A stretch of DNA of 64,000 nt from a virus (taxonomy: Duplodnaviria; Heunggongvirae; Uroviricota; Caudoviricetes), in IMG/VR virus record IMGVR_UViG_3300029935_000001, positions 32,001 through 96,000 of that record; one strand, given 5' to 3'. The notes below the pieces were generated by a model. The model made no database searches, was not told the origin of the DNA, and saw only the letters and a list, made by a program, of their open reading frames with translations. The translations under genes were made by a program, and so were the position numbers. Shown here in pieces: positions 1 to 43,775 of the stretch. Within the stretch, counting starts at the first letter, position 1, and every line of letters starts with the position of its first letter.

Positions 1-340
1 TTGACGTTAAATTTCGCTTACCTATAACGTCTACTGTCATTCTCGCAAAGGCATAAAGTAATCTATAGTTGTTAGGAATCACTTTAGTAAGAAGCCAGTG
101 ACAAATATAATGCTCGCGGGCAGTTAGATATACAATATTTTGTTTATCAGAAATCCAAGTAGTGTCTTCGCACAAACATTTAGGCACGACGTGGTGGCCT
201 TCGGTATAACCCAGCGCTGCCTTAGCTGTTTTCCGAGTTGACGCCCGGGCAGCCGCTCGCCGACATATTTGCTGATACCAACGAAAATATTTTGACTCAG
301 TATCAGTTTTGCTGTATAATAATGCTATGTAATCGGTCAT
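1..340 (-). CDS. HNH homing endonuclease, partial (runs off window start; not in ORF track)
   Basis: Manual translation from ATG at 340: MTDYIALLYSKTDTESKYFRWYQQICRRA...YTEGHHVVPKCL...NIVYLTAREHYICHWLLTK, an HNH motif; no stop before position 1. Confidence 0.85.
   Translation of the reverse strand, partial: MTDYIALLYSKTDTESKYFRWYQQICRRAAARASTRKTAKAALGYTEGHHVVPKCLCEDTTWISDKQNIVYLTAREHYICHWLLTKVIPNNYRLLYAFARMTVDVIGKRNLTS
292..320 (+). promoter_or_regulatory. sigma70-type promoter for 379..1452, embedded in the antisense HNH gene
   Basis: TTGACT-17nt-TATAAT. Confidence 0.65.
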
Positions 341-378: not shown

Positions 379-1452
379 ATGAACGTAAAAGCTCAACTAA
401 AGAAAGAACTGCGCGACATTGTGATGCGCGCCCAAAGATGCGCAAAGTGGATGCCTCGTCAAGGCATTGAAGCTGCTCGTATTCGCTCGCTCTTTGGTAT
501 GGCCCCGAAGCTGTATCGCAAGATGCTGGTCGAAGGCACTCGGGTTGTTGAGACCCAGATGTGCGCAAAGAACTGGGAAGGCATCACCTATGAGCACGTA
601 CCGTCGGTGGCTATGGCGCGGTACTCGCGCGCGTTCGCCCGCAATTCGCAAGTGGCATTTCCTGCCTATAAGGCAGCCCTCGAGGCCGGCACTGTGCAGG
701 CCAAGTCTGCTGCGCTGTTTCCGTACGATGTAGCTCGCACGCTCAAAGGCGGCGACACTACCATCGCCAACGAGCAGTGGAAGGCGCTGCCTAACTACAT
801 CGACGGCCGTGCCAAGCTCTTCCCAATTATCGACGTGTCTGGGTCCATGTCCTGCCAAGTAAGTGGCTCGGTAACGGCAATGGACATTGCTATCACTCTC
901 GGACTGTATATCGCTGAGCGCCAAAACAGTGCCCTCAAGGACCTGTTTATGACGTTCGACGACACGCCACGCATGATCTCAGTAGCTGGCTGCTCGTCCT
1001 TCCAGGACCGGTACCGCAAGATCAAAGACGCGCCATGGGGTGGGTCAACTAACTTACAAGCATCGTTTGACCTACTGCTCAAGACCGCAGTAGACAACCG
1101 AGCGGCTCCGGAGGACATGCCCGAATACCTGTTCATCGTGTCCGACATGGAGTTCAACGAAGCGTGCGGCAGTGGGTATTACAGAGCGCGCAAGAGCGAA
1201 ACCAACTATGCCGAGATTGAACGCAAGTATCGCGCCAGCGGGTATCAGCGCCCGAACGTTATCTTCTGGAACGTCAACGCCCGTAACGGTAATATTCAAG
1301 TCGAGGCTGACGAGAACGGCACTGCAATGATCTCGGGGTTCTCTCCAAGCATCCTGCGCCCTCTGCTCAACGCCGAATCGGTAACTCCGCGGCAGATCAT
1401 GGAGGCAGCAGTGATGGTGCCGCGCTACACCGTCGAAGGGCTTACTGCGTAA
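379..1452 (+). CDS. TROVE/Ro-like vWA-domain protein (DUF2828-like), apparently lacking its N-terminal part
   Basis: CAKWMPR, HVPSVAM, MIDAS DVSGSM, WGGSTN, VSDMEF, IFWNV, SGFSP motifs; SD AAGGA. Confidence 0.8.
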   Translation: MNVKAQLKKELRDIVMRAQRCAKWMPRQGIEAARIRSLFGMAPKLYRKMLVEGTRVVETQMCAKNWEGITYEHVPSVAMARYSRAFARNSQVAFPAYKAALEAGTVQAKSAALFPYDVARTLKGGDTTIANEQWKALPNYIDGRAKLFPIIDVSGSMSCQVSGSVTAMDIAITLGLYIAERQNSALKDLFMTFDDTPRMISVAGCSSFQDRYRKIKDAPWGGSTNLQASFDLLLKTAVDNRAAPEDMPEYLFIVSDMEFNEACGSGYYRARKSETNYAEIERKYRASGYQRPNVIFWNVNARNGNIQVEADENGTAMISGFSPSILRPLLNAESVTPRQIMEAAVMVPRYTVEGLTA

Positions 1453-1455
1453 AGG

Positions 1456-1476
1456 AAAGGGGCTTCGGCCCCTTTT
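1456..1476 (+). terminator. intrinsic terminator
   Basis: AAAGGGGC-TTCG-GCCCCTTTT. Confidence 0.85.
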
Positions 1477-1479
1477 GCT

Positions 1480-1890
1480 ATGTTGGGCATATTCCTATTT
1501 GAGATTCGACAACGTATCGGAGCATTACTGTTTTATATGGCTCAATTTGAACTTCACGTTAGGTTAGGCGTCGTAGGTGATCTGCGCTGGCGGATGCTTC
1601 AAGGCGGCGAGGTTTCAGTAAAGTGGCCAATGGGCGAGTGCGTGGTCTCCCCAGACCACCCACGGTGGGACTGGACAATAGGACCACCGCACTACATAGT
1701 CAACAGCGCAGACCCTAACGATCATTATAGGCCCTGGCTCGAGGCTAATGTAGGCAAGCAAGGGTGGGACTGGGAATGGAAGCTGGTCCCAGCGGAGCCG
1801 GGTTGCTACTCGCCAGGCGATCGAGTGCTCATTCGCGTGCGTAAAAGTAAAAGCCACACTCTGTCTGCAATGGCCTTGATGTGGGGCTAA
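1480..1890 (+). CDS. hypothetical protein (start uncertain); small paralog-family-like C-terminus
   Basis: ORF track; WLEANVGKQGWDWEW core, ends SAMALMWG. Confidence 0.6.
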   Translation: MLGIFLFEIRQRIGALLFYMAQFELHVRLGVVGDLRWRMLQGGEVSVKWPMGECVVSPDHPRWDWTIGPPHYIVNSADPNDHYRPWLEANVGKQGWDWEWKLVPAEPGCYSPGDRVLIRVRKSKSHTLSAMALMWG

Positions 1891-1913
1891 ATAATAGTTT
1901 ACAAGGATTATCT

Positions 1914-2432
1914 ATGATCGAACTATTATTTGGGTTGCTATGCGGTCCTCTCGACCGCATCCGGGGGGATAGATTCCATTTACTAAACAGTCGTTTAGTT
2001 GATAAGCTAGCATACGGAGCAGCAATTGCTGCCGCGGCTGGATTATACAACCAGCCGCTAGCACTGTTGTTAGTTGCAATTGCTATGGCAATTGGTATGA
2101 GTCCTGGATGGGGCACGCCGTACGGTGCATTCCTTGACCAACGACCTATGGATCCGATCGACCAAGAATGGTGGCAAGTCGGAATCCTTAAACGCCATAC
2201 TCAACTGGCATTGCTTGCACGCGGTGTTATCTGGGGGCTGCCTATTGTACCTGTTGCACTATACTTAGGTCAGCTAACTTTGTTATTATTGATACCTATC
2301 ATCAGTGTATCGTTTATTGTTGCGTTGTATCTAACCCGGTTAATGCCCAAAGACCGAGACCTGTGGGCCGACTCCGAGACCTTCCGCGGGTTGTTAATCG
2401 GAGTTTCTACTGCAGTGATATTTAGCGCATAG
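1914..2432 (+). CDS. multi-pass membrane protein, unknown function
   Basis: several hydrophobic segments; SD AAGGA; TAAATA at 1888. Confidence 0.7.
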   Translation: MIELLFGLLCGPLDRIRGDRFHLLNSRLVDKLAYGAAIAAAAGLYNQPLALLLVAIAMAIGMSPGWGTPYGAFLDQRPMDPIDQEWWQVGILKRHTQLALLARGVIWGLPIVPVALYLGQLTLLLLIPIISVSFIVALYLTRLMPKDRDLWADSETFRGLLIGVSTAVIFSA

Positions 2433-2508
2433 TGTGCACAAATGCACAGCACAAGACGCTAACATAACGTATTATAATAATAGGTGTTAACTATACGAGG
2501 ATTGTGCT

Positions 2509-3816
2509 GTGTATCTTTCTACAAAATTTAAATTTTCGTTGTCCTTGCTTTTAGCGTTTGCCTGGGCAACATTTTCGTGGTATATTGCGCTTCCGTGGGT
2601 CGCGGGGTTGTCGACCGTTATACCTACGTGGACAGCCTGGATGATTATTTTTGGTATAGCTATCATCCCCGGGTTTATGAACGCGTTCTTAGTGTCGTCG
2701 TTGGCTTTTGATCGTCGACCAAAATTCCGGCCAGACTTGTCGAGGTACCCGCCGCTCACTATTCTGGTTGCTGCATACAACGAAGAAGCAGGGATTGCAT
2801 CAACTATTGAATCTATTGCTAAGCAAGAGTATCCCGGTAAGCTGAGTGTTATCGTTGTAAACGACGGGTCCACGGACTCAACGGCCGAGATTGTAAAATC
2901 GCTGCAGCCGCAACATAAGTGGCTCCGATTGCTAACAATGACCCAAAACGTAGGCAAAGCAAATGCTCTTACATATGCATTGCGATTTGTTAAAACCAGT
3001 ATCTTAGTAACCCTCGACGGCGATTCGTACTTATACCGAGACGCGCTAAAAAACATTGTTGGGCGTTACCTTAGTGATCCGGTTAATACTACTGCTGTTG
3101 CTGGGGCAGTCTTGGTTCGCAACAGTCGAAAAAACTTTGTAACTAAAATCCAAGAATGGGATTACTTCCACGGCATTGCTTCGATTAAACGTCTGCAATC
3201 ATTGTACCAAGGCACGTTGGTCGCTCAAGGCGCGTTTAGTTTATATAAAACCTCTTCAGTAAAGGCAGCAGGCGGCTGGCCGCATACGGTAGGCGAAGAC
3301 ATTGTGCTAACATGGGCGCTTCTTAAACAAGGCGACAGAGTAGGCTTTGCTGAAAACGCCATTACGTTTACCAACGCACCTGACAACTGGCCACAGTTTA
3401 TTCGCCAACGACAGCGTTGGAGTCGAGGACTCATTGAAGCATTTAAAGAACACGGTAGTTTGTTGTTTCGCAAGCGGATGACGACGTTGTTTATTTGGTG
3501 GAATTTAATGTTCCCGTACCTCGACTTTGTCTATACATTTGCATTTATTCCAGGAATTTTGTTAGCTCTATTCGGCGTTTTTTGGATTGCTGGTCCACTT
3601 ACGCTTATTGTCCTACCATTGGCAATGATAGTAAACTACATTATGTATCGAATCCAGAGCCGTATGTTTGCAGATCAAGGATTGCGAGTTCGTAAAAATA
3701 TCCTGGGATTTTTTGCTTACGCGCTGTGTTATAGCTTCATTCTTCAGCCAGCATCGGTATGGGGCTACGCTAAAGAAATCATCAACGGAACAAAGAAAAA
3801 TTGGGGAACCAAATGA
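2509..3816 (+). CDS. processive family-2 glycosyltransferase (PgaC/IcaA-like polysaccharide synthase)
   Basis: AAYNEE, NDGSTD, GKANAL, DGD, GED and QRQRW (D,D,D,QxxRW) motifs; N- and C-terminal TM helices; GTG start with GAGGA SD. Confidence 0.9.
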   Translation: MYLSTKFKFSLSLLLAFAWATFSWYIALPWVAGLSTVIPTWTAWMIIFGIAIIPGFMNAFLVSSLAFDRRPKFRPDLSRYPPLTILVAAYNEEAGIASTIESIAKQEYPGKLSVIVVNDGSTDSTAEIVKSLQPQHKWLRLLTMTQNVGKANALTYALRFVKTSILVTLDGDSYLYRDALKNIVGRYLSDPVNTTAVAGAVLVRNSRKNFVTKIQEWDYFHGIASIKRLQSLYQGTLVAQGAFSLYKTSSVKAAGGWPHTVGEDIVLTWALLKQGDRVGFAENAITFTNAPDNWPQFIRQRQRWSRGLIEAFKEHGSLLFRKRMTTLFIWWNLMFPYLDFVYTFAFIPGILLALFGVFWIAGPLTLIVLPLAMIVNYIMYRIQSRMFADQGLRVRKNILGFFAYALCYSFILQPASVWGYAKEIINGTKKNWGTK

Positions 3817-4718
3817 AAAAGCTTTTTGGAGTATTGTTGTTTGCGCCTGCAGTTGCTTCGGCACAACAAATTTACAGCAGCTATTGGTACGGTGAAGACA
3901 CGGATCAAAACCGCGAGCATTCTGTTGCTGTAGAAGGTTGGCAAAACATCACAACGGCTTCATTTTTTGAAGCCAATGTTGGTGCGCGAGTAACTCAAAG
4001 CCGCGTGTCAAATCGGGGTCAAAGCCAAAACACCACAGATGCAAGAGTTCTAGGCCATGTTATTCTCGATAACATGTGGAACTTAAACTACAGCATTGGT
4101 GTGTTTAACGGAGCAAAAACCGAAATGGTTGGCTCGGTCGAAGGATCGCTTCGAACTGAAAAGACGCTTTTTGCACTAGGGGTTGACCGCAGTGGTATTT
4201 CGTCGATTACAGGCGAGCAAAATGGGGTGCGAGTAGGCGCTCATACATATCGAACTCGATATTATACGTCAGCTGAATATTTTGGTACACGCTGGGGCGC
4301 GTCTGGCGTAGGCTACGTTGAGAATTTCTCAGACGCAAATACCCGGCGCGGTATTGACAGCCGAGTGTATTACACGGTGCTGCCTGCTGCAGGCGCTAGC
4401 GTTTATGTCAAAACGCGACACTGGCGCAATTCAAAACCGTACACAGGTAACTATTATTCGCCCGATCAACTTGATCGATACTTGGCGGGGGTTCAAGTAA
4501 AATATTCGGTGTCTGATAACGTCGTGCTAAGTGGTTACGCAGACGCTGGTGTTCAACACGTCGACAGTAAAACTTCACGTGTCCGCAATTGGAAAGTGCA
4601 AATTGATCGCACACATAGCAATGCGGTAGCATACGGAGCCGCAGTAGGAGTAGACTCGTCTGCGAATCATTCGTATCGGTATAAGTACGCTACGGCTTTT
4701 GTAAATTATCGATTTTGA
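3813..4718 (+). CDS. outer-membrane beta-barrel protein (possible polysaccharide export pore, PgaA/YaiO-like)
   Basis: signal peptide MKKLFGVLLFAPAVASA; amphipathic beta strands; YYSP motif; C-terminal YRF; ATGA overlap with the GT2 stop. Confidence 0.7.
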   Translation: MKKLFGVLLFAPAVASAQQIYSSYWYGEDTDQNREHSVAVEGWQNITTASFFEANVGARVTQSRVSNRGQSQNTTDARVLGHVILDNMWNLNYSIGVFNGAKTEMVGSVEGSLRTEKTLFALGVDRSGISSITGEQNGVRVGAHTYRTRYYTSAEYFGTRWGASGVGYVENFSDANTRRGIDSRVYYTVLPAAGASVYVKTRHWRNSKPYTGNYYSPDQLDRYLAGVQVKYSVSDNVVLSGYADAGVQHVDSKTSRVRNWKVQIDRTHSNAVAYGAAVGVDSSANHSYRYKYATAFVNYRF

Positions 4719-4729
4719 TAAACTTGCGG

Positions 4730-4758
4730 TTGACCGCCGCATAATATAATTGTAACAT
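4730..4758 (+). promoter_or_regulatory. sigma70-type promoter
   Basis: TTGACC-17nt-TAACAT. Confidence 0.45.
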
Positions 4759-4781
4759 TTAACTTTTAACAAGGACTATAT

Positions 4782-5231
4782 ATGAAAAAAATTCTACTTG
4801 CTTCTGCACTTGCTTTTACTGCGTCGACTGCGTTTGCTTGGGAAATTGGCATTACTGGTAACCGCGACTATGCCGGTGACAACCGTAACGGCGCTGGTGT
4901 CGTAGTTGCTAACCAATACGGCAACCTCGGTGTTGCTGCTGCGTTTGATCGGACCTCAGTTGGCGACAACGATCAGAACCGTTACAGCGTGACTGGCAGC
5001 TACGACGTACCGGTCTATCAAAACATCACCGTAGGCCCTCGCGTTGGCGTAGCCTACCTCGACAACCAATCCGGTCGTGACGGCTATGCCCTTGTCGCTG
5101 GTGTTGGCGCTCGTGTGCCAGTGACTGATACTGTGGCTATCACCGTAGACTACACTCGCCAGCGCGGCGAAGAGTCAGTCAAAGGCTTCGACGGCAACCG
5201 CTACACTGTTGGCGTGCGCTACGGCTTCTAA
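4782..5231 (+). CDS. small outer-membrane beta-barrel (OmpA/Ail/Lom-like)
   Basis: signal peptide ending AFA; alternating hydrophobic strands; C-terminal VGVRYGF. Confidence 0.8.
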   Translation: MKKILLASALAFTASTAFAWEIGITGNRDYAGDNRNGAGVVVANQYGNLGVAAAFDRTSVGDNDQNRYSVTGSYDVPVYQNITVGPRVGVAYLDNQSGRDGYALVAGVGARVPVTDTVAITVDYTRQRGEESVKGFDGNRYTVGVRYGF

Positions 5232-5239
5232 CTTACCAA

Positions 5240-5263
5240 AAACAAGGCCGCAAGGCCTTGTTT
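5240..5263 (+). terminator. intrinsic terminator
   Basis: AAACAAGGCC-GCAA-GGCCTTGTTT. Confidence 0.8.
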
Positions 5264-5268
5264 CATTT

Positions 5269-5541
5269 ATGACAGTCGAAAAGAAACTCCTTACCTTATT
5301 CATCGAAGAAGCGGCAGAATGCACGCAAGAGATCTGCAAGATGCTTCATCACGGGATCAACAATGTAAACCCGGTGACTGGTGTAGCTAATCTCGAGAAG
5401 CTACACACCGAAGTTGGCGACTTGCTGGCCATCATCGAAATGGCGCAAGACCGCGGACTGCTTGACCCATTCAAACTCCAACAGGCGATTCTCGACAAGC
5501 GCGAACGGCTCAAGCATTGGCACCCTGATCTTTTTGGTTGA
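5269..5541 (+). CDS. MazG-like nucleotide pyrophosphohydrolase
   Basis: EEAAE...EVGDL motif. Confidence 0.7.
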   Translation: MTVEKKLLTLFIEEAAECTQEICKMLHHGINNVNPVTGVANLEKLHTEVGDLLAIIEMAQDRGLLDPFKLQQAILDKRERLKHWHPDLFG

Positions 5542-5566
5542 CATCCTACTGCTGCTCCAGTATAAT
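5538..5566 (+). promoter_or_regulatory. sigma70 early promoter
   Basis: TTGACA-17-TATAAT. Confidence 0.85.
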
Positions 5567-5597
5567 AGCTACATACTGAAACGCTGGAGCAGCGACT

Positions 5598-5699
5598 ATG
5601 ATCCGGAAGTTTGTGCAGGCTTACAAATATCTCCAAAAATACAATCATAGCCGCCGCGTTAGCCCAGGCCAACTGATCACTTACGTCTTGGGGCTGTAA
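5598..5699 (+). CDS. 33-aa hypothetical peptide (below ORF-track cutoff)
   Basis: MIRKFVQAYKYLQKYNHSRRVSPGQLITYVLGL; GGAG SD; directly after promoter. Confidence 0.55.
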   Translation: MIRKFVQAYKYLQKYNHSRRVSPGQLITYVLGL

Positions 5700-6395: not shown

Positions 6396-6675
6396 AATTT
6401 TTTACAAAATCCGTAACCGCAAGACTGGCTTGTTTAGCAAAGGCGGCAGCCCAGGCAATGTCTCTTGGGTGAAGCGGGCTGGCAAAACATGGAATTCGCT
6501 TGGCACCCTGCGCAGTCACATCTCGCAGCATTTGCCGAGTGAATACAAGCTCAGATGCACTGATATGAGCGACTGGGAAGTAGTCGAGTATGTGGTCACC
6601 GAATCGAAGGCGCGGCCCATCTCCGAGCTCATGTCCGACAAGCAACTAGTCCAACTGTTAACGCATTCTGGTTGA
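6385..6675 (+). CDS. hypothetical phage protein
   Basis: YKIRNRKTGLFSKGG N-terminus; operon packing. Confidence 0.65.
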   Translation: MTTEIFYKIRNRKTGLFSKGGSPGNVSWVKRAGKTWNSLGTLRSHISQHLPSEYKLRCTDMSDWEVVEYVVTESKARPISELMSDKQLVQLLTHSG

Positions 6676-6700
6676 CCTTTCTGTGCAGACCCGGTATAAT
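6672..6700 (+). promoter_or_regulatory. sigma70 early promoter
   Basis: TTGACC-17-TATAAT; shares GTATAATAGCTACATA with the 5538 promoter. Confidence 0.85.
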
Positions 6701-6727
6701 AGCTACATAACGTAAAGGAGCTAGCAA

Positions 6728-7093
6728 ATGAGCAACCCCGAATCACTAGCAGTGTTTGTGGTAATGACCAACAAAGACCTCACTGAAGGTAAAGGCGGCG
6801 ACGAGCCGCTGATGCTGTGCGAAACCGCTACTACTGCTGCGCGTCTTGGAAAAGGCCGGTACGTTCAGGGTTCTGATTGCCCGGTGATTGAAGTGCCAGC
6901 AGTCAAGCTCAATGGCGAATGGTGGCTGCCTGTGCGCCGGATTCCGATCGAGCGTGCTTCGACCGAGGACCTGGCGTTTGAACACCAACAAGCTGTTGAC
7001 GCCGCCCGAGCTCGTGCCAAAGCGGCCGCCCTCCGGAAGGCGCAAGCTGCTGGGCTTAGTGACGATGACATTGCTGCCCTTATTGGATACTAA
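6728..7093 (+). CDS. hypothetical protein
   Basis: AAGGAG SD; ORF track. Confidence 0.7.
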   Translation: MSNPESLAVFVVMTNKDLTEGKGGDEPLMLCETATTAARLGKGRYVQGSDCPVIEVPAVKLNGEWWLPVRRIPIERASTEDLAFEHQQAVDAARARAKAAALRKAQAAGLSDDDIAALIGY

Positions 7094-7094
7094 C

Positions 7095-7334
7095 ATGACC
7101 GACCAAAAAGCAAAGCGTCTACTCAAAGACATGATGGACCGAGGGTTAGGCGTTTCCGGGCATCATGTTAGCAACGGCGCCGACTACTACCAATGCTCGA
7201 TGTGCTTTGCCAGCAAAGACACCATGGGGTTTGCGGACATCGAGGCCCGACTCGACGACGTGGATCACCGCCCAGACTGTGATCTCGTGAAGATTGCTAA
7301 CTGGCTCAACGAACAGTTTCCAGAGGAAGAATGA
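7095..7334 (+). CDS. hypothetical small Cys/His (possibly zinc-binding) protein
   Basis: CSMC...HRPDC. Confidence 0.6.
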   Translation: MTDQKAKRLLKDMMDRGLGVSGHHVSNGADYYQCSMCFASKDTMGFADIEARLDDVDHRPDCDLVKIANWLNEQFPEEE

Positions 7335-7780
7335 TGCTTACTGTTGAAGAACGCCTGCGTTTGTGCCACCAAGGTACCGCTTGGATGGGCACCCTTATTG
7401 AAAAACAGCTTCGCGAGCTCACCGACCTCTTGGCCGCCTCCGAACGGTCAGATGCCGAGAGCCTGGCGATGTACCGCAGTGCTCGAGATCGTGCCGATCG
7501 TCTCCAGCTCGAGATTGACGAGATCAAGCAAACCGAGTTCCCGCGCCGCGTCGAGAAAGTGGCCGAGGCCTGGCGCAACAAAGTCGAGCAGCTTACTGAG
7601 GCCGAAGCTGTTATGCGGCGCAACGCCCTTGAGCACCAAGCCGAGGCCGAAAAACTGCGCGAAGCGCTGGCTGACTGCGTGCGTTACATCAGGGTCTATG
7701 CCGATCCCGACCGTGAAGGAATCGACCCCGACACCGTCGAAAAGGCCGAAGAACTTCTTGCAAAATTCGACATCCTGTAG
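7331..7780 (+). CDS. hypothetical coiled-coil protein
   Basis: GAGG SD; helical, E/R/A-rich. Confidence 0.65.
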   Translation: MMLTVEERLRLCHQGTAWMGTLIEKQLRELTDLLAASERSDAESLAMYRSARDRADRLQLEIDEIKQTEFPRRVEKVAEAWRNKVEQLTEAEAVMRRNALEHQAEAEKLREALADCVRYIRVYADPDREGIDPDTVEKAEELLAKFDIL

Positions 7781-7786
7781 TATAAT
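7758..7786 (+). promoter_or_regulatory. sigma70-type promoter
   Basis: TTGCAA-17-TATAAT. Confidence 0.65.
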
Positions 7787-7816
7787 CAATACTTAAATAA
7801 AGCCGAGGCTGCAACT

Positions 7817-8962
7817 ATGCTCCAAGTTCAAGAATACCTGCGTGACACCCGATTTGCCGATAACTTCGCTGCGCTCGAAGTTCTTGAGGCCGAGCTGGGC
7901 ATTAAGGCACGCATTTACGAAGACGACAACCTCGTCCTACTCGACTACAACCAGATCGAGTCGCCCAAGACTCACCCGATTGTGATCGAGTGCCGTTCGC
8001 TGATCTTGGCACTCGATACCTTTGAGGTTGTGTCGCAAAAGTTCCGACGCTTCTTCAACCTTGGTGAAGCTCCGGATCTGGTTGCTGGTATGGACTACTC
8101 GAAGTCAGTTGTTCTCGAAAAGGCCGACGGCTCGCTGAGCGGTGTGTATCGCAACCCGCATACCAAGCAGTGGGAGATTTCAACCCGCGGTATGGCCAAG
8201 GCCGAGGGCGAGCATATTATGGGCGGCACCTTCCGTGAGCGGATGCGGAGCGCGTTTGGCTTTGCTGACGAAGCCGAGTTCCAGAAATACTTCAATACTG
8301 CTCCGGCGATCAACCAACGTGCCACTTACATCTTCGAGTTCACCTCGCCTGAAAACCGCATTGTGACCAAGTACGAAAAGCCGGAGATGGTGTTGATCGG
8401 CGCAACCCTCGACGGCCGGGAGTTCTCGCTTGAGGGCTTGACGATCTTGGCGCAGTTGATGATCCAAGATGGTCTCACTGTGCGTATGCCGCAAGTGTTC
8501 CCTGCCACTGACGCCAAGGCGCTGGTTGAGATGGTCAATGCGTTTGAGAACCTGGCTGAGGGCGTAGTAGTGTGGGAAGAATCCACCGGGCGCCGTGTGA
8601 AGATCAAGTCGCAAACCTACCTGGCGGCACATAAATTGCGCGGCAACGACGCAGTGCCAACCCGCAAGAACATGATGGCTGTTGTGCTCGAGGGCGAAAT
8701 CGACGAGCTGCTGGCTGTGTTTCCCGAGTTTCGGCAGTATGCGGAACCGGTGCTGGCCGATGTAGCCGAAGTTGAGCGCCAAATTACCGAGGTGTGGGCT
8801 GCGACCAAAGACATCGCTGAGCAAAAAGCGTTCGCGCTTGCTGTTGTGCCGCACGGGCGCATCTCGAAGGTACTGTTTGAAGCCCGCAAGCTCGGTGCCG
8901 AGCCGCTAAAGACTTTCCATGCTATGCCGCTCAACACCAAGATGGGTATTGTCGGACTGTAA
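7817..8962 (+). CDS. RNA ligase 1 (T4 Rnl1/RnlA-like)
   Basis: ECR, RFFN, motif I KADGSL, FEFTSPENRIV, EGVVV, KIKS. Confidence 0.85.
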   Translation: MLQVQEYLRDTRFADNFAALEVLEAELGIKARIYEDDNLVLLDYNQIESPKTHPIVIECRSLILALDTFEVVSQKFRRFFNLGEAPDLVAGMDYSKSVVLEKADGSLSGVYRNPHTKQWEISTRGMAKAEGEHIMGGTFRERMRSAFGFADEAEFQKYFNTAPAINQRATYIFEFTSPENRIVTKYEKPEMVLIGATLDGREFSLEGLTILAQLMIQDGLTVRMPQVFPATDAKALVEMVNAFENLAEGVVVWEESTGRRVKIKSQTYLAAHKLRGNDAVPTRKNMMAVVLEGEIDELLAVFPEFRQYAEPVLADVAEVERQITEVWAATKDIAEQKAFALAVVPHGRISKVLFEARKLGAEPLKTFHAMPLNTKMGIVGL

Positions 8963-8974
8963 GCACCGAACCGG

Positions 8975-9007
8975 AAGCAATGCGCTATACTATAGCGCAT
9001 TGCTTTT
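8975..9007 (+). terminator. long palindrome / terminator
   Basis: AAGCAATGCGCTATA-C-TATAGCGCATTGCTT followed by TT. Confidence 0.6.
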
Positions 9008-9028
9008 CTGAAAATACACAAGCCCACT

Positions 9029-9241
9029 ATGAAAAAGCCAGTCGTGGTACATCGGTTGAGCACCCGGAACGACAGGGCCAACACTGTGCTGGGCCATATC
9101 CGGTGGTGCCGCGCGAGCCTCGGAGTACGAGGAGTAGACTGGGATTTTTTTGCCACTGGCACCACTGTTGAGGTTATGATTTACAACCAGCAAGCCGCTT
9201 CATTTTACGCTTTGAAATTTCCTGCAGCAAAGGCACAATGA
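9029..9241 (+). CDS. small hypothetical protein (paralog family)
   Basis: WCRASLG...DWDF...AASFYALKF. Confidence 0.65.
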   Translation: MKKPVVVHRLSTRNDRANTVLGHIRWCRASLGVRGVDWDFFATGTTVEVMIYNQQAASFYALKFPAAKAQ

Positions 9242-9498
9242 GTTTGGTTACTGCTGCTTGCACAGTTAATTGTACCTTGCCTGCTGTTATGCACAAGCAC
9301 GAGCCGTATGAAGTATTTTTAATTGAGCGACGTATAACTTCGCAGGTAATCGAAACACACGGCGGCGCTATTATTAAGTGGGTGAGTCGCAAAACCCACC
9401 CGGACTATAGCAGTGACCACACATGGATGGTTAGGTGCAACGAAGTTACCTTAACTGCATTGACCCTGGTGTGCAAGAGCGTTACCATCGTAGGATGA
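9238..9498 (+). CDS. small hypothetical protein, paralog of 9500..9760
   Basis: C-terminus CNEVTLTALTLVCKSVTI. Confidence 0.7.
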   Translation: MSLVTAACTVNCTLPAVMHKHEPYEVFLIERRITSQVIETHGGAIIKWVSRKTHPDYSSDHTWMVRCNEVTLTALTLVCKSVTIVG

Positions 9499-9744
9499 TA
9501 TGAGCAAAATTCACGTCGAATGCGAGGTCCAGGCGCAATTGCCTAAGACCAAGACCTCGCGAACTTTTGCGGCACAGTTTAGCGCAGAGCAAGAGCAAAC
9601 CCGCAAAATTATCAACCGAGCCGGCGGTCTGGCAACCACCTGGCTCGGAGGCGACTGGTTTGGTGGCAAAAACTTGCACAAGTGGGCAGTTGTTTGCGAC
9701 GAAGTTGCCCTAACTGCATTGACCCTGGTGTGCAAGAGCGTTAC
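9452..9744 (+). repeat. 34-bp exact direct repeat (9452-9485 and 9711-9744)
   Basis: TAACTGCATTGACCCTGGTGTGCAAGAGCGTTAC occurs twice. Confidence 0.95.
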
Positions 9745-9760
9745 TATAACTGAACGCTAA
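9500..9760 (+). CDS. small hypothetical protein, paralog of 9238..9498
   Basis: C-terminus CDEVALTALTLVCKSVTI. Confidence 0.7.
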   Translation: MSKIHVECEVQAQLPKTKTSRTFAAQFSAEQEQTRKIINRAGGLATTWLGGDWFGGKNLHKWAVVCDEVALTALTLVCKSVTITER

Positions 9761-9810
9761 ATACAGCAGAGTAGAGAGACTACTCACTATCTTATTCTAA
9801 GGAGCTTAGA

Positions 9811-10854
9811 GTGCCAAATAAATCATACGACGCCATCGTCTTCGTTGGCCGTTTTCAACCAGTCCACACGCAACACCTTGCCACCATGCGCCGAGCGCTG
9901 GAGCTCGCAGATCAACTCATTGTTGCTGTTGGGAGCTCTAACCGAGCCCGTAACATTCGCGACCCATGGACTTACGCTGAGCGCGTCTCGTTTATCTCTG
10001 CTAACTTTGCGCCGGAGGATCGTGCTCGCATTCGGTTCATTCCAGTTAAAGACCACCTCTACAATAACACACTGTGGGCAGCGCGGCTTACTGGCAGTAT
10101 CATGCAGGAAGTGGGCGATCGCAAGCGCATTGGCCTAATCGGCGCCGCCAAAGATGAGACCACGTTTTACCTCAACCTGTTCCCCACCTTCGAGCGCATT
10201 GACACACCGCTGGTCGCAGGCATTGACGCTACTCGAATTCGCGAAATTATCTTCGGCTACGGCCGCGGGATCGCCGACACCCAAGTCGGCGCGGTGCTCA
10301 CTGCTGCTACAGTCGAGGCCATTCTCCGGTGGAGCCGCAACAACGGCGAGGAGTTTGCGCGCATCACTCGTGAGCAGCTATTCCTCAGCCAGTACCGCGC
10401 AATGTGGGAAGTAGCCCCGTACCCTCCAACCTTTGTTACCGTTGACGCGGTTGTAACATGCGGCAATCACGTGCTCATGGTCGAGCGCAAAGCTGCGCCG
10501 GGCGAAGGGCTTATGGCGCTACCCGGAGGGTTCATCAACCCGAAAGAAACGCTCGAGGACGCTTGTATCCGCGAGCTACGCGAAGAAACCCGCCTCAAGG
10601 TACCTGCGCCAGTGATCCGCGGCTGTATCAAGAGCTCGCACGTTTTTGACCACCCACTTCGTAGCCTACGTGGCCGCACTATTACGCACGCGTACCACAT
10701 CCAGCTTAACGACACCGAGCTGCCGCGTGTCAAGGGCGGCGACGATGCGGCACGCGCCTTCTGGGTTCCGCTACACGAGATTGTAGAGCGGCAGACCGAG
10801 ATCTACGAAGACCACGCATTTATCATCGAATATTTCACCGGCGTCTCACTGTAA
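9811..10854 (+). CDS. nadM: bifunctional NMN adenylyltransferase / Nudix ADP-ribose hydrolase (NadM-Nudix, NatV-like)
   Basis: VGRFQPVH, GSSN, DATRIRE; Nudix box GGF..ETLEDACIRELREET; GGDDA; EDH. Confidence 0.92.
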   Translation: MPNKSYDAIVFVGRFQPVHTQHLATMRRALELADQLIVAVGSSNRARNIRDPWTYAERVSFISANFAPEDRARIRFIPVKDHLYNNTLWAARLTGSIMQEVGDRKRIGLIGAAKDETTFYLNLFPTFERIDTPLVAGIDATRIREIIFGYGRGIADTQVGAVLTAATVEAILRWSRNNGEEFARITREQLFLSQYRAMWEVAPYPPTFVTVDAVVTCGNHVLMVERKAAPGEGLMALPGGFINPKETLEDACIRELREETRLKVPAPVIRGCIKSSHVFDHPLRSLRGRTITHAYHIQLNDTELPRVKGGDDAARAFWVPLHEIVERQTEIYEDHAFIIEYFTGVSL

Positions 10855-13556: not shown

Positions 13557-13585
13557 TTGACAACGCTCCACTGGACTAGTATAAT
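13557..13585 (+). promoter_or_regulatory. sigma70 early promoter
   Basis: TTGACA-17-TATAAT. Confidence 0.85.
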
Positions 13586-14999: not shown

Positions 15000-15111
15000 T
15001 TGACAAAACTTACATCAACCGTTAAACTATATCTGTTGGTGCAGCAAATTGCAACAAGCACAAAAAAGTTTCAAAAAAGTGGTTGACCAGACAAACACAC
15101 TTCGTTATAAT
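15000..15111 (+). promoter_or_regulatory. tandem sigma70 promoters upstream of MoxR gene
   Basis: TTGACA-17-TAAACT (15000-15028) and TTGACC-17-TATAAT (15083-15111). Confidence 0.75.
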
Positions 15112-18536: not shown

Positions 18537-18565
18537 TTGACAAATGCCAACTGCCCAAGTATAAT
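18537..18565 (+). promoter_or_regulatory. sigma70 early promoter
   Basis: TTGACA-17-TATAAT; shares AGTATAATAACAACAT with the 13557 promoter. Confidence 0.85.
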
Positions 18566-25147: not shown

Positions 25148-25410
25148 AAGTAATCATATGGGAGCGGAAGGTCGACGTCAGTGTCCTCGACGGTGACGAC
25201 TTTACTCAGCCTGAGCGAGCCGAGTTTTACGCCTGGCTCGCCGAGACCGAAGAAGGCCAGTGGGTCCGCGAAAACTTCAAGCAGCACAACTTCAAGGTAG
25301 ACGCCAGCGTGAACCACGACACTTACCAGCATCAGGTTCGCGTCTACATCGAAAGCGAACCGTCAGCCACGCTCACTGCCTACCTTCTCCGGTTTCGCCA
25401 CTCTGCTTGA
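25144..25410 (+). CDS. small hypothetical protein (paralog family)
   Basis: WLAETEEGQWVREN...ATLTAYLLRF. Confidence 0.7.
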   Translation: MKVIIWERKVDVSVLDGDDFTQPERAEFYAWLAETEEGQWVRENFKQHNFKVDASVNHDTYQHQVRVYIESEPSATLTAYLLRFRHSA

Positions 25411-25435
25411 CACTGCAGGCGACCTGCTGTATAAT
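25407..25435 (+). promoter_or_regulatory. sigma70 promoter
   Basis: TTGACA-17-TATAAT. Confidence 0.85.
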
Positions 25436-25468: not shown

Positions 25469-26446
25469 ATGAATAAACCTCCCACTCGACCGTATACGAT
25501 GCTGATTGGCGGTGCCGGCTTTATTGGACAGCATCTGATTCGAATGTTCCAGCAGGCCCGGCATTATATCCACGTTGTTGACCCTGTAAAGATCTACGGA
25601 AATGGTGTTTCTAGTGACGTGTTGTTTGCTGAACGGCGGCGCCGGCTTGAGTTAGTTGAGCGTAACTGTGACGCCGTTACCGAGCAAGTCCAAGACGCTG
25701 AGTATTGCTCCCCCGACGTTATCGTATACTTAGCCGGGGTCCCGCGACACGCAGAAGCGCTGACTGCGCCAGTGGATGCTGCCCGATCTATGATTACTGA
25801 TCTGATCCGTGCATTAGAGATTGCTGCTCGGAACGGTGTTCGGCGATTTGTTTACGTCTCAAGCTCAATGGTGTACGGAGATTTTGCGGCGCCGATTCGC
25901 GAGGAGGCCCCGCTTAACCCTATAGGTATCTACGCTACCCTCAAGCGCTCAGGCGAAGAGCTAGTCAAGGATTTCGCAATGCGCAGCGGATTCGAATACG
26001 TGATCGTACGGCCCACTGCTGTCTACGGCCCTGGTGACCTACCTAACCGTGTGGTGCCCAGGTTTTTCGAGCGTGCCCTCCAAGGCCGGACCTTAAAGGT
26101 GAATGGGCGCGACGAGGTGCTAGACTTTACTTATGTAACAGACACTGCCCGCGGCATTTTTCTAGCTGCTACCGTTGACGGCGCCGAGAATGACACGTAT
26201 AATATTAGCTACGGCACCGCTACTCCAATCTATGATGTGGCCGCCAAAATAGTCGATTTGCTCGGCGAGGGAATAATTGAAGTCAAGGGCCGCCAAGCAA
26301 ACTTTCCAAGTCGACACGCACTAGACATCACAAAGGCTCAAGACAAGCTTGGGTATCGTCCGGAAGTTGACATTAACACAGGGTTAAAAAAACTAAACAA
26401 ATGGCTAACATTTCAGACGCTAAGCAAATTCCATTTTTCGGAGTAG
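25469..26446 (+). CDS. NAD-dependent nucleotide-sugar epimerase/dehydratase
   Basis: GGAGFIG, SSSMVYG, YATLK (YxxxK), AVYGPG, DFTYV. Confidence 0.9.
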   Translation: MNKPPTRPYTMLIGGAGFIGQHLIRMFQQARHYIHVVDPVKIYGNGVSSDVLFAERRRRLELVERNCDAVTEQVQDAEYCSPDVIVYLAGVPRHAEALTAPVDAARSMITDLIRALEIAARNGVRRFVYVSSSMVYGDFAAPIREEAPLNPIGIYATLKRSGEELVKDFAMRSGFEYVIVRPTAVYGPGDLPNRVVPRFFERALQGRTLKVNGRDEVLDFTYVTDTARGIFLAATVDGAENDTYNISYGTATPIYDVAAKIVDLLGEGIIEVKGRQANFPSRHALDITKAQDKLGYRPEVDINTGLKKLNKWLTFQTLSKFHFSE

Positions 26447-30688: not shown

Positions 30689-33600
30689 TCAATCACGCAA
30701 ATTCTGAACAAACGTTGTATCCTGTAGAGTCAGCGGCAACGACGTGTTTAGATACAAGCTCCGGTCATACGGGTGAGCAACTTCGCTCATTTTACTTATA
30801 TCAATAACCTCAGCACCAACTTGATGCTGGTTTACTCCAGTTCCAGCAGTTCCTCTGCGCAATCCTATTAGTTGCCCAAGTGCATTGTTTTTGTCTTTAA
30901 ACGTAATGCGCTCAGCACCGATTGTTACAACCCCAAACCTATGCGGTTGAGAAGCAGGCGCAGCCAACCGATTGGCGTCTAACACCTGTACCGTAGCAGT
31001 ATCATTGTCAAGGGCTGCAGTTAAGGTAGTTTTGTTTTTCATAGTGTAAAACTTAACTGAATCATTCATGTCTTTAAAAATGCGATATTCTAGCCCGCTT
31101 GGCACTACGTTGTTAGTCAGTGCCGTCACTGACAATACATCTGTAGCTGATATAACCGGGCGCAACAATTCAATATAGTTGCCTACTACACGAAAATCTA
31201 CTTCTGGTCGCAGCGGCATGCCATTTAATGTTGCCCATAAGCGGTTAATGTCTGCGTCTGGACGCCCAAGGTAAAATACATTAACTAAGCGGGTTAAATC
31301 TTCGTACAAATCAAATCGGTCGGAGTCGAACTCAACCGAATCATACGGATGCTGATTCACATAACCTTCTTCGGCTGGCCCGACAAATGTTTTTGTAAGT
31401 GCGCTCAATTGCCGAGTATCGTTGAAATCTACAATAGTAATTAAATCTCCTGCAGTGATACCTGCTTGAGGTTTAAGCCACAACTGTGTCTGCGCTGTGA
31501 TTTTATAATCCGCAACTGTGTCAATTGCTATTACCACCCGGGCATCAGGTGCAGCAGCTAACGTTACTGTTTGCGCAGATAAGTCAACTACATAATCAAC
31601 TAACAATTGCTGTTCTACATCGTTTACAAATACACGAACGTCAGACTCAACTATGCTTCCAGCATACCCAGCAGACTCCGACGGAAACTCATACACCGTG
31701 CCAACAGGTGCTATGAATTCTACCTGGTGAGCTGGTGACAATCTGCGGCCGTTGACCTCTACAAACGCATTGATAGAGTTAGCCCACAGTAACGGACGGC
31801 TTAGTGTGTAGGTTTCGCTAGCGGTTGCGGTCAAAGTTTGCAATTGCGGCATAGAATAATCAAAGCCAGAACTTCCAAAAACTACAACCGACACTCCACT
31901 TGCTGCTGGGCCGTCGAATACCACAGTAGTAGAATACCTATCGTTTTCTTCTACTGACACCGGAGCAACATTGATCCCGTTTACTATGGTTAACACTGCG
32001 CTGATATCACCTAAGCTTACTGGCACTACAATCTCAGTTGCAGTTGTTGAATAAAACGCCCGGTGCAATTGGTTGCCGCCACCGATTCCGTATACTACTA
32101 TCTTAAATAGGTTAGCATCGTTTGGCAAGTCGGTTACTGTTTGTGTATGCCAATTAACCGAATAATCAGCCCCTTCTTCTAGTAGCTGATTACTTTGCAA
32201 GTCTATAACACGCACAAACGAAGGCACTTGAACCAGGTTAGCAAACCCAATCTGCCCAGCAACCGGTTGTTTAGTTGCCGACTTCACTTCAAACGCAAAG
32301 CCTCGGCCGGTGTAGTCTGCGCCCGGTCGTTGATACACACGAAGATCTAATGTATCAAACGCAATACCGGGCATTAATTCCTCAGGTGCATGTGAATGGT
32401 GCACTGATATAAATTCATCGCCGTCGATGGTTGCAGCAGGATCAACTCCGTCAAACGCAGACTGTAAAATGGTGTTAAGTTCGTCGGGGTTTTCTGGCGA
32501 CCAATGTTTGCCATACACCCACGACGCGCCAAACCGGGTGCCTGGAATTACTAATCCAAGCTCGTTTCCGGGCATGTTTAGAGATGGCTGGTATGCCTCG
32601 GTTGTCCTGTCGGCTGCGCCAAAGTGCTCAAGTCGTGCACGGGCAACTTGCACTTCTTCAAAATACTCGGGACGGAACACCAACATCTGGGCCGACGGCT
32701 GGGTCGCTGCATAAACTTTCCCCGCGACTGTTACCAATTCGCGGGCAGCATACTCGGCAGCTGGCGACCATGCTGCTATATTAAACACTTCTGCAGCGTC
32801 TACACTGTAATCTGCTTCAAGACCGCGGGCTGCTAAAACAACTGGCGTGCCGACTACATAGTATTCGTGATCTTTTTTAACAATGTCGTCAGCTGTGTAT
32901 TGCACTGCGGATTGCCATTGTGTCACGTTTGCTTGATACTCGTAACGATCAAACTTTATAGCAGTTTTTTGTCTTCTGACGGAACCTGGGGTCATCACTG
33001 GTGTAAGTAAAGCGCCTGCGCCGCCGCCGCCGACGACATTAATCAATGGCGCAGATGTATAGCCGCTGCCAGGGTTACGGACCTCAACTCCGATAATATG
33101 ACCAGCGGAGCTCAGCCGGGCTACTAATTCCGCCGGCACTTCGGCGTCGCCTACAACTTCGAGGATCGGTCGCACGGTGTATCCATTTCCGGGAGAGACC
33201 ACTGCTACCGACTCGACACTAAGCAAATAGTTCTGAGCCCAATCAGCCCAGGGCATACTGGTCCAAATTGGATGGTCTATGGCATGCTCGTGTAGGCTGA
33301 TGCCGCCACTGGTTGTGACCACTGGACTAATAAATCGTTGTAACAACGGGTCGTAATACGCCGGGACATCAAAGTCAGTATAATGCCCGTTGGCTGTTTC
33401 GAGCGCCGAATATTTTGATGAAAATTCGCGAATCTTAGAGTGGTATGGTTTGCCTTCGTTTACAAAATCTAAAACAAAGTCTTGGTTGTCTCTCTTGTAA
33501 TATTCGTCTTGTTGCAACTCGCGAACGGTGTGTTCGACATCAATTAGCGAGGTTTTTGTTAACCATTCGGGCGCAATTTGTTCTGTCAGGATATAATTAA

Positions 33601-43765: not shown

Positions 43766-43775
43766 AGTATAGTAT

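Follow-up and report, generated by a model that had tools for sequence, protein, structure and literature searches.

A synthase gene and a porin gene side by side

We analysed a stretch of 64,000 nucleotides (the window; record bases 32,001-96,000) from the IMG/VR virus record IMGVR_UViG_3300029935_000001, a genome of 323,407 bp that carries direct terminal repeats (DTR) and is rated 100% complete. Near the start of the window lies a cassette of two overlapping genes encoding a processive family-2 glycosyltransferase (GT2) and a signal-peptide beta-barrel protein, called barrel 1 below, which is predicted to be an outer-membrane export porin. This synthase-porin pair is the subject of our analysis and has the following features.

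2509..3816, + strand: PgaC-like inner-membrane processive GT2 of 435 amino acids (aa) with a GTG start (Pfam, NCBIfam, motifs)
3813..3816, + strand: ATGA start/stop overlap coupling porin translation to the synthase (sequence)
3813..4718, + strand: predicted outer-membrane export porin (barrel 1) of 301 aa with a signal peptide at residues 1-19 and a C-terminal Phe (AlphaFold model, fold comparison)

The synthase matched the Pfam families Glycos_transf_2 (9.2e-28), Glyco_tranf_2_3, Glyco_trans_2_3 and Chitin_synth_2, the last of these above the Pfam cut-off. Its catalytic motifs are DGS at 119 (D119), DGD at 170 (D170xD172), GED at 262 (GED264) and Q300RQRW304, all of them invariant in an alignment of 13 family sequences. 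Hydrophobic helices, located by computed hydrophobicity and by eye, lie on either side of the catalytic domain, and the protein terminates about 15 residues past the last of them with no additional Pfam domain. It is collinear with canonical PgaC along the protein (27% identity, E 9e-37) and with BcsA over residues 48-390, membrane part included. The gene product has what is required of the synthase of a synthase-dependent system, namely a processive inner-membrane GT2 with D, DxD, (T/G)ED and QxxRW motifs and its own transmembrane channel region. The best NCBIfam match was PgaC_IcaA (TIGR03937; 1.1e-49), although the score of 169.5 bits misses the equivalog cut-off of 422.3 bits; the XrtG-associated GT2 and NodC (96.5 bits) models ranked next. 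Among PDB sequence matches was the hyaluronan synthase (HAS) of a chlorovirus (7sp7, E 3.9e-08). Identity to bacterial homologues, of which there are more than 500, is 50-67%. Its closest GT2 relatives, P0017, P0004 and P0018, come from contigs of 322,695, 111,911 and 212,270 bp.

Barrel 1 begins with MKKLFGVLLFAPAVASA followed by QQ and ends in YRF. The AlphaFold (AF2) model, for which seven homologues were the input, has 16 strands (predicted local distance difference test, pLDDT, 78; predicted template modelling score, pTM, 0.72), and the strands span residues 19-300, leaving a barrel without a tetratricopeptide repeat (TPR) domain or N-terminal extension. The top Foldseek ranks were the barrels of PgaA (4Y25), PelB (9H80) and BcsC (9B8A and 6TZK), with template modelling (TM) scores of about 0.7; generic porins scored 0.4-0.55, and chitoporin and other sugar porins ranked lower. 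Comparison by VIA-align gave the same order, with the PgaA barrel 4Y25 first (Z 26.3, root-mean-square deviation 2.4 A, 266 residues), then PelB (Z 24.0) and BcsC (Z 23.6-23.9), followed by OmpG (17.4) and all others at 17.4 or less. As modelled, barrel 1 is structurally a member of the PgaA/PelB/BcsC export-porin class, and the locus has the dedicated porin adjoining the synthase that this class of systems requires.

At the sequence level the kinship is much more distant. The window protein had no Pfam, PHROG or NCBIfam match and no PgaA_barrel (PF21197) hit, a word-based protein search recovered its own cluster only, and the profile of the barrel family was not significant against PDB sequences (BcsC E 0.57, PgaA E 2.7). 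Aligned by hhalign with the canonical PgaA barrel of Dyella, the family profile reached E 6.6e-5 and a probability of 64%, and the family signatures FSDxNxR and YFSP were common to both. Sub-threshold PgaA_barrel matches occurred in 20 of 88 family members (best 8.1e-05) and BCSC_C matches in 6 of the 88. Barrel 1 is a remote relative of PgaA, not a member of its family. An exhaustive hidden Markov model (HMM) search of 1.84 billion representatives delimited the barrel family as 390 cluster representatives at 50% identity, mostly of 280-320 aa. The window protein and most sampled members lack an above-threshold Pfam family, and the group merits a family definition.

The two genes are joined at AAATGAAAA, where the porin ATG at 3813 overlaps the synthase TGA (3814-3816). 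An earlier reading of this DNA, made from its letters and without database searches (the sequence-only reading), gave correct positions for every element it named. It had described this ATGA overlap and a signal-peptide barrel ending in Phe, and both descriptions agree with the sequence and with the 16-strand model.

Distribution of the pair in bacteria and phages

The sequence-only reading hung on whether GT2 and barrel occur together at homologous loci, and they do. Among 80 homologous loci with sufficient downstream sequence, 79 have the porin gene directly 3' of the synthase gene, the exception being one contig of a Massilia metagenome-assembled genome (MAG) without the barrel; 5 additional loci, beyond the 80, likewise have it. 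A 4-nt (A/G)TGA overlap, in the barrel's frame, was found in 70 of the 79. A census that took a single genome for each species counted at least 549 synthase loci in bacteria, those listed coming mostly from Burkholderiales and other Betaproteobacteria, and also from Acinetobacter, Rhodanobacteraceae, Caulobacterales, Sphingomonadales and one Acidobacteria MAG. Beyond synthase and porin, the pair loci share no conserved gene. The commonest neighbours, at about 17 bacterial loci, are genes for GGDEF/EAL proteins, typical of exopolysaccharide control, and for sensor kinases. Synthase and porin are a conserved module that is widespread in bacteria. On a 118-kb viral contig (L115:6290-6745, + strand; L numbers are our locus labels), an open reading frame (ORF) of 151 aa stands between synthase and barrel and disrupts the start/stop overlap.

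Some relatives carry longer barrel proteins. In variants of 672-684 aa the barrel is preceded by a polysaccharide deacetylase of carbohydrate esterase family 4 (CE4), with P0144 and P0147 above the Pfam cut-off. The phage locus L004 has a third gene homologous to the pre-barrel region (N-terminal plus CE4) of these fusion proteins (tblastn 4e-40 to P0144), whose own Polysacc_deac_1 match of 19.9 bits lies under the 23.1-bit cut-off. Eight bacterial loci have variants of about 468 aa (467-481 aa) with an additional N-terminal domain of about 170 aa (L027:8296-9708, plus L014, L023, L026, L030, L041, L059 and L083). The Dyella type of this variant gave a weak, short, sub-threshold TPR_16 match (E 1.9e-4), and the variants may be intermediates between the minimal barrel and a TPR-bearing PgaA. 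A carbohydrate-binding module was tried as the identity of the extra domain and rejected, the score of 0.80 being within chance.

The deacetylase in some relatives points to a polymer of the N-acetylglucosamine (GlcNAc) type. The best HMM matches of the window GT2 (PgaC, NodC and chitin synthase) are all GlcNAc transferases, and Chitin_synth_2 is above its cut-off. Based on these models and on the recruitment of CE4 deacetylases by relatives, we slightly favour uridine diphosphate (UDP)-GlcNAc as the sugar donor that the window synthase would polymerise. Since no deacetylase was found in the window phage, the product would be neutral.

A rival reading is that no long secreted polymer is made. 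The GT2 could instead make short oligosaccharides, as NodC does, or glycosylate a lipid or periplasmic acceptor, with the barrel serving as a diffusion or uptake channel for small glycans. With 435 aa and flanking membrane helices, the enzyme resembles NodC in size and layout, and the NodC model does match; the TPR scaffold and the receptor for cyclic di-GMP (c-di-GMP) that are usual in polymer systems are missing; and chitoporin and other sugar porins do appear in the fold list of barrel 1. However, three polymer-export porins stand above all diffusion porins in that list, with a Z gap of 6-9 units, and PgaC_IcaA beats NodC by 73 bits. Where a CE4 deacetylase is fused to the barrel, the arrangement recalls PgaB, which acts on a polymer in transit, and strict coupling of the enzyme to an outer-membrane pore in 70 loci suggests a joint need for both and dedicated export. 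We therefore consider production of short glycans unlikely.

The pair also recurs in phages. A first scan of viral contigs yielded 6 loci with a GT2 50-65% identical to that of the window, each with a signal-peptide protein of 272-330 aa encoded directly 3'. A second scan, with the family alignment as query, added 4 loci with both GT2 and barrel, whose contigs measure 6 to 250 kb, as well as 2 distant GT2s without a barrel. We then placed these sequences in a quick maximum-likelihood GT2 tree rooted on canonical PgaC, in which ten phage-like loci, window included, form two clades. Clade 1 comprises the window with L003, L004, L005 and L007 (Shimodaira-Hasegawa-like approximate likelihood ratio test, SH-aLRT, 91) and clade 2 comprises L006 with L112-L115 (SH-aLRT 98). 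The GT2 of L002 is nearly identical to a copy on an Acidovorax chromosome, and this locus is probably bacterial or prophage DNA; an ORF beside its pair is, judging by its N-terminal sequence, presumably integrase-like. The flanks of the viral loci hold genes for tail fibre, T4-type DNA polymerase, ribonucleotide reductase, exonuclease and deoxyribonucleotidase. On the 32.9-kb viral contig of L004, a transposase gene (L004:106-1194, + strand; phrog_506, 1.4e-104) lies directly upstream of the GT2-barrel-deacetylase cassette, and it is possible that such an element was the vehicle moving the module between genomes.

The viral branches are long (0.3-1.3 substitutions per site) and barrels within clade 1 are only 17-28% identical, yet reading frames, catalytic motifs and the porin gene with its motifs are intact. 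The pair has therefore probably been kept by selection for a long time, in two phage lineages or more; given branches of such length in quick trees, the count of transfers is a lower bound. The cassette could also be passenger DNA of host origin, without a role in the phage life cycle and perhaps non-functional or silent. The GC content drops to 0.454 at 2001-4000 (0.518 in the preceding 2-kb bin and 0.498 in the following one), a transposase adjoins the cassette at L004, and L002 is all but a chromosomal copy beside an integrase-like ORF, as would be expected of passenger DNA. On the other hand, such DNA would hardly stay intact in two viral clades on long branches; phage genes flank the cassette on both sides, in the window and in its relatives, and the genome is a complete DTR record. 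A mere passenger is thus most improbable.

The sequence-only reading had called the cassette unusual for a T4-like phage. It is not confined to this phage, being a bacterial module of wide distribution that two phage lineages have kept. Among 50,697 phage records, megablast of window positions 1400-5600 and tblastn of barrel 1 gave no match, and tblastn of the GT2 gave distant GT2s or bacterial contamination only. Our literature search found no report of a phage-borne synthase and porin system, one cyanophage 'PgaA' being an irrelevant annotation of 46 aa, and no published description of a TPR-less synthase-porin dyad.

Genome setting, neighbouring genes and a proposed mechanism

The phage had been called T4-like, and the window does contain T4-type core genes (RnlA-like ligase, gp55-like late sigma factor, gp46/47-like nuclease and long tail fibre). 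Its nearest isolates by the gp46-like protein, however, are PA5oct-like Pseudomonas jumbo phages (50% identity), followed by Sinorhizobium and Agrobacterium jumbo phages (47.5% and 43%), and it is not T4-like in the strict sense. The cassette sits within a + strand block of small early-type genes. In the first 27 kb of the window, the + strand has 4 perfect TTGACA-N17-TATAAT sites against 0.04 expected, and several one-mismatch sites of the sigma70 type were seen solely on this strand and in this region too, nearly all with a leading G (GTATAAT). These near-perfect sites are probably the early promoters of the phage, as judged from their consensus.

292..320, + strand: candidate sigma70-type early promoter, TTGACT-17-TATAAT (11/12 consensus match)
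5538-5566, 6672-6700, 13557-13585, 15083-15111, 18537-18565, 25407-25435 and 26175-26203, + strand: further members, with 292-320, of the near-consensus sigma70-type promoter family (consensus match)

The site at 292-320 is the closest strong promoter 5' of the tightly packed + strand gene run holding the cassette, which it may drive, and the next promoter of the family stands at 5538, directly 3' of the cassette. Promoters on the same strand around the cassette suggest early transcription by host sigma70. The T4 late promoter TATAAATA occurs twice in the window, neither time close to the cassette. Farther along, the gp55-like late sigma factor ORF (53486-55306, + strand, 606 aa) is matched by the sigma model in three separate stretches and by a PhoH-like model over residues 193-526, so this putative sigma gene may carry a large insertion, whether an intein or an inserted domain. 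In the tail/baseplate region, an ORF of 4,409 aa (30689-43918, - strand) adjoins the T4-type long-tail-fibre distal subunit and is followed by same-strand ORFs of 1,142, 775 and 711 aa.

Close to the pair lie a gene upstream and a gene and a hairpin downstream.

1881..2432, + strand: multi-helix membrane protein of 183 aa (ORF, hydrophobic segments)
4782..5231, + strand: barrel 2, a small outer-membrane protein of 149 aa with a signal peptide and the C-terminus YGF (AF2 model, Foldseek)
5240..5263, + strand: hairpin with a 10-bp stem and a GCAA loop (-16 kcal/mol, z -4.2)

Both genes had been noticed from the sequence, a membrane protein just upstream of the GT2 and a second small barrel after the first, and both are present. 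The 183-aa membrane protein belongs to no Pfam, PHROG or NCBIfam family, its Atlas hits are all below 0.9, and neither viral contigs nor the other GT2-barrel loci gave a relative. The AF2 model of barrel 2 has 8 strands (pLDDT 87.8), and its Foldseek matches are OmpX, the OmpA transmembrane domain, NspA, Ail and OprF-N. Checked by HMM and Foldseek, then, the two barrels part company, barrel 1 going with PgaA/PelB/BcsC and barrel 2 with OmpX-like proteins. Barrel 2 agrees with OmpX/Ail/Lom at the level of fold only; by sequence its family of about 149 aa is YfaZ-like rather than Ail/Lom, with 83 homologues, some of which match PF07437 or PF13505. Homologues occur in 3 other viral contigs with no GT2 nearby (L088, L089 and L090:5001-5462, one contig being of 353 kb) and at no other GT2-barrel locus, and a copy 85% identical to barrel 2 lies on a 340-kb contig. 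Large phages may carry the barrel 2 gene as a recurrent cargo. In the window it is an independent cargo gene unrelated to barrel 1, and it and the upstream membrane protein are outside the module, contrary to the idea that they are parts of one system. The membrane protein as a substitute for PgaD and barrel 2 as a second export component were both rejected as candidates, since each is missing at all other GT2-barrel loci.

The hairpin lies directly 3' of barrel 2, where a terminator had been proposed. It is stable and terminator-like, with 0 of 200 shuffles folding equally well, but its U (T) tract is interrupted and a consensus terminator scan missed it. A MazG-like gene starts 7 nt past the hairpin, so termination is probably partial.

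The phage genome holds one GT2 and one export barrel. The absence of a PgaB deacetylase, PgaD and a TPR scaffold had been noted around the cassette and extends to the whole 323-kb genome, which gave no match to CE4 (Polysacc_deac_1), GHL13, PgaD, PilZ or Poly_export, and no protein like the glycoside hydrolase families GH18, GH20 or GH13. No periplasmic TPR scaffold was found, barrel 1 having no Pfam hit of any kind, and no c-di-GMP receptor came to light in the PilZ and PgaD searches, PelD and Alg44 not having been searched separately.

These results make it likely, in our judgement, that the genes at 2509-3816 and 3813-4718 form a self-contained minimal module for synthase-dependent secretion of an exopolysaccharide. 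On the cytoplasmic side, the PgaC-like GT2 would build a polymer from a nucleotide sugar, most likely UDP-GlcNAc, and pass it through the enzyme's own transmembrane channel as it grows. The porin, translated from the same message via the start/stop overlap, would be exported by Sec and inserted by the beta-barrel assembly machinery (BAM) as a 16-strand barrel of the PgaA/PelB/BcsC class, and the chain would exit the cell through it. With TPR scaffold, deacetylase, PgaD and PilZ all missing, nothing would escort the polymer across the periplasm or modify it on its way out. Proteobacteria would be the source from which the phage acquired the pair, the window copy now belonging to a phage-specific lineage. 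Of the minimal glycan-secreting system proposed in the sequence-only reading, the synthase-porin core is retained on the strength of motifs, fold and co-occurrence, and barrel 2 and the membrane protein drop out.

Several points weigh against this secretion module. The GT2 falls far under the PgaC equivalog cut-off (169 versus 422 bits), which makes any assignment of sugar and linkage tentative, and the phage genome has no deacetylase or glycan hydrolase to indicate the chemistry; the polymer is itself a prediction. No significant PgaA_barrel sequence hit was obtained, so that homology of the porin to PgaA rests on structure prediction and a weak profile match (64%). Unlike the anionic PgaA lumen, that of barrel 1 appears roughly neutral (14 K/R versus 12 D/E facing inwards), an estimate from strand parity that is crude and taken as a hint only. 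Known systems use a TPR scaffold and a c-di-GMP receptor and here there is neither, so the pair may rely on factors of the host or function in another way. Finally, the assignment of the promoter is a consensus match.

What the phage would gain can be stated with less confidence. Since sigma70-type early promoters surround the cassette, coating of the infected cell with polymer would begin soon after infection, which may mask receptors against other or superinfecting phages or make cells clump. That the pair is a complete two-protein machine, switched on early, whose GlcNAc-type coat shuts out competing or superinfecting phages is a tentative proposal. The module could also be functional for another benefit, such as a matrix that keeps cells and progeny near new hosts, protection from grazers or stress until lysis, or attachment of the phage's own virions, a role that would resemble that of the NfrB product for phage N4. 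Bacterial copies adjoin c-di-GMP enzymes typical of biofilm control, in keeping with such uses. In chloroviruses, which coat the cells they infect, five roles of the coat have been proposed and none settled, exclusion being judged unlikely there (PMC5408694). The absence of a GH18, GH20 or GH13-like depolymerase with which virions could cross their own coat counts against these other benefits; it fits a short-lived coat, or a glycan that virions need not cross. The evidence does not discriminate among the proposed roles, and a benefit of this second kind is possible and somewhat doubtful.

In the current view, synthase-dependent secretion of exopolysaccharides depends on a periplasmic TPR scaffold and, as a rule, on a c-di-GMP switch. 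A two-gene version that is widespread and lacks both would be a minimal system for studying how a polymer crosses the periplasm and finds its pore. If our interpretation is right, the pair would surpass every known trans-envelope export system for polysaccharides in simplicity, and would offer a tractable model of how a nascent chain reaches the outer-membrane pore as well as an easily transplanted cassette for polysaccharide production. What is new is the minimal TPR-less dyad, widespread in bacteria and kept by phages; synthase-dependent secretion itself is known. That phages modify O-antigen and break down capsules is known; a lytic jumbo phage supplying both a synthase and an outer-membrane exit channel for a new surface polymer would follow a different strategy. 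That two separate phage lineages have kept the pair suggests that it truly raises fitness, with rival-phage exclusion, aggregation and protection of the infected cell as candidate benefits. The phage module would then be a bacterial counterpart of the chlorovirus hyaluronan or chitin coat, and the question of what that coat is for could be addressed in a genetically tractable bacterial system.

Comparison with known polysaccharide secretion systems

One of the closest parallels is PgaABCD/HmsHFRS. The window GT2 has the motif set and membrane layout of PgaC, barrel 1 and PgaA both have a 16-strand outer-membrane barrel, with 4Y25 as the best structural match, and some relatives of the pair include a CE4 deacetylase similar to PgaB's N-terminal domain. 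The differences are that barrel 1 has 301 aa and no TPR against about 815 aa for the PgaA ORF of Dyella, that the window phage has neither PgaB nor PgaD, and that its GT2 stays below the PgaC equivalog cut-off. One Dyella genome carries a canonical pga locus (815-aa PgaA ORF, PgaA_barrel E 2.7e-48) plus a GT2-barrel pair whose barrel the PgaA_barrel model fails to detect, and Acinetobacter cumulans has pgaBCD plus a pair. Since a pga locus and the pair occur in the same genomes, they are distinct, coexisting systems. In A. cumulans, pgaB, pgaC and pgaD lie in a row with no adjoining pgaA (L103, G003:C1:2140000-2156000, positions 6525-10231, - strand). The whole genome gave no PgaA_barrel hit, and its GT2-barrel pair is 173 kb from pgaBCD; the minimal barrel may also serve the canonical synthase there.

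NfrB and NfrA, through which phage N4 adsorbs to E. coli, are a PgaC-like GT2 and its outer-membrane partner. NfrB has a C-terminal c-di-GMP-binding domain of the MshEN type and NfrA a long TPR region, whereas the window GT2 and barrel 1, compared with them by description only, leave no room for either. XagABCD of Xanthomonas is likewise a PgaC-like GT2 system with an outer-membrane partner and is linked to biofilm (PMC3609779). By description it differs in being a four-gene operon rather than a two-gene pair, and a sample of 201 genomes from the Dyella order gave a close match to the GT2 family in just 6, too few, it would seem, for this family to be the common xagB of Xanthomonas. BcsA/BcsC and PelF/PelB share the synthase-plus-porin logic, the BcsC and PelB barrels matching barrel 1 at Z 23.6-24.0 and BcsA aligning with GT2 residues 48-390. 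The window differs from them in that no PilZ or other c-di-GMP receptor was found, nor a BcsB-like partner or TPR, and its synthase is half the size of BcsA.

Stand-alone barrels have a precedent in the Wzp porins WzpX, WzpS and WzpB of Myxococcus xanthus, which are PgaA-like, TPR-less and encoded next to polysaccharide machinery (PMC9603273). Barrel 1 is also TPR-less, PgaA-like in structure and encoded beside polysaccharide machinery. The Wzp barrels, however, are 18-stranded and act in Wzx/Wzy pathways together with periplasmic OPX (Wza-type) proteins (PMC9603273). Barrel 1, by contrast, has 16 strands and a synthase as its coupled partner, and the phage genome gave no match to a Poly_export (OPX) protein.

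As a virus-encoded polysaccharide synthase, the window GT2 is best compared with those of chloroviruses, which express a hyaluronan synthase (A98R) or a chitin synthase early, so that infected algae become coated (PMC5408694). In both cases the virus encodes a processive GT2; the chlorovirus coat contains GlcNAc, and the window enzyme is probably early too. The synthases themselves share no specific kinship beyond the GT2 fold. The algal host has no outer membrane and no dedicated pore, whereas the window phage brings its own predicted exit channel.

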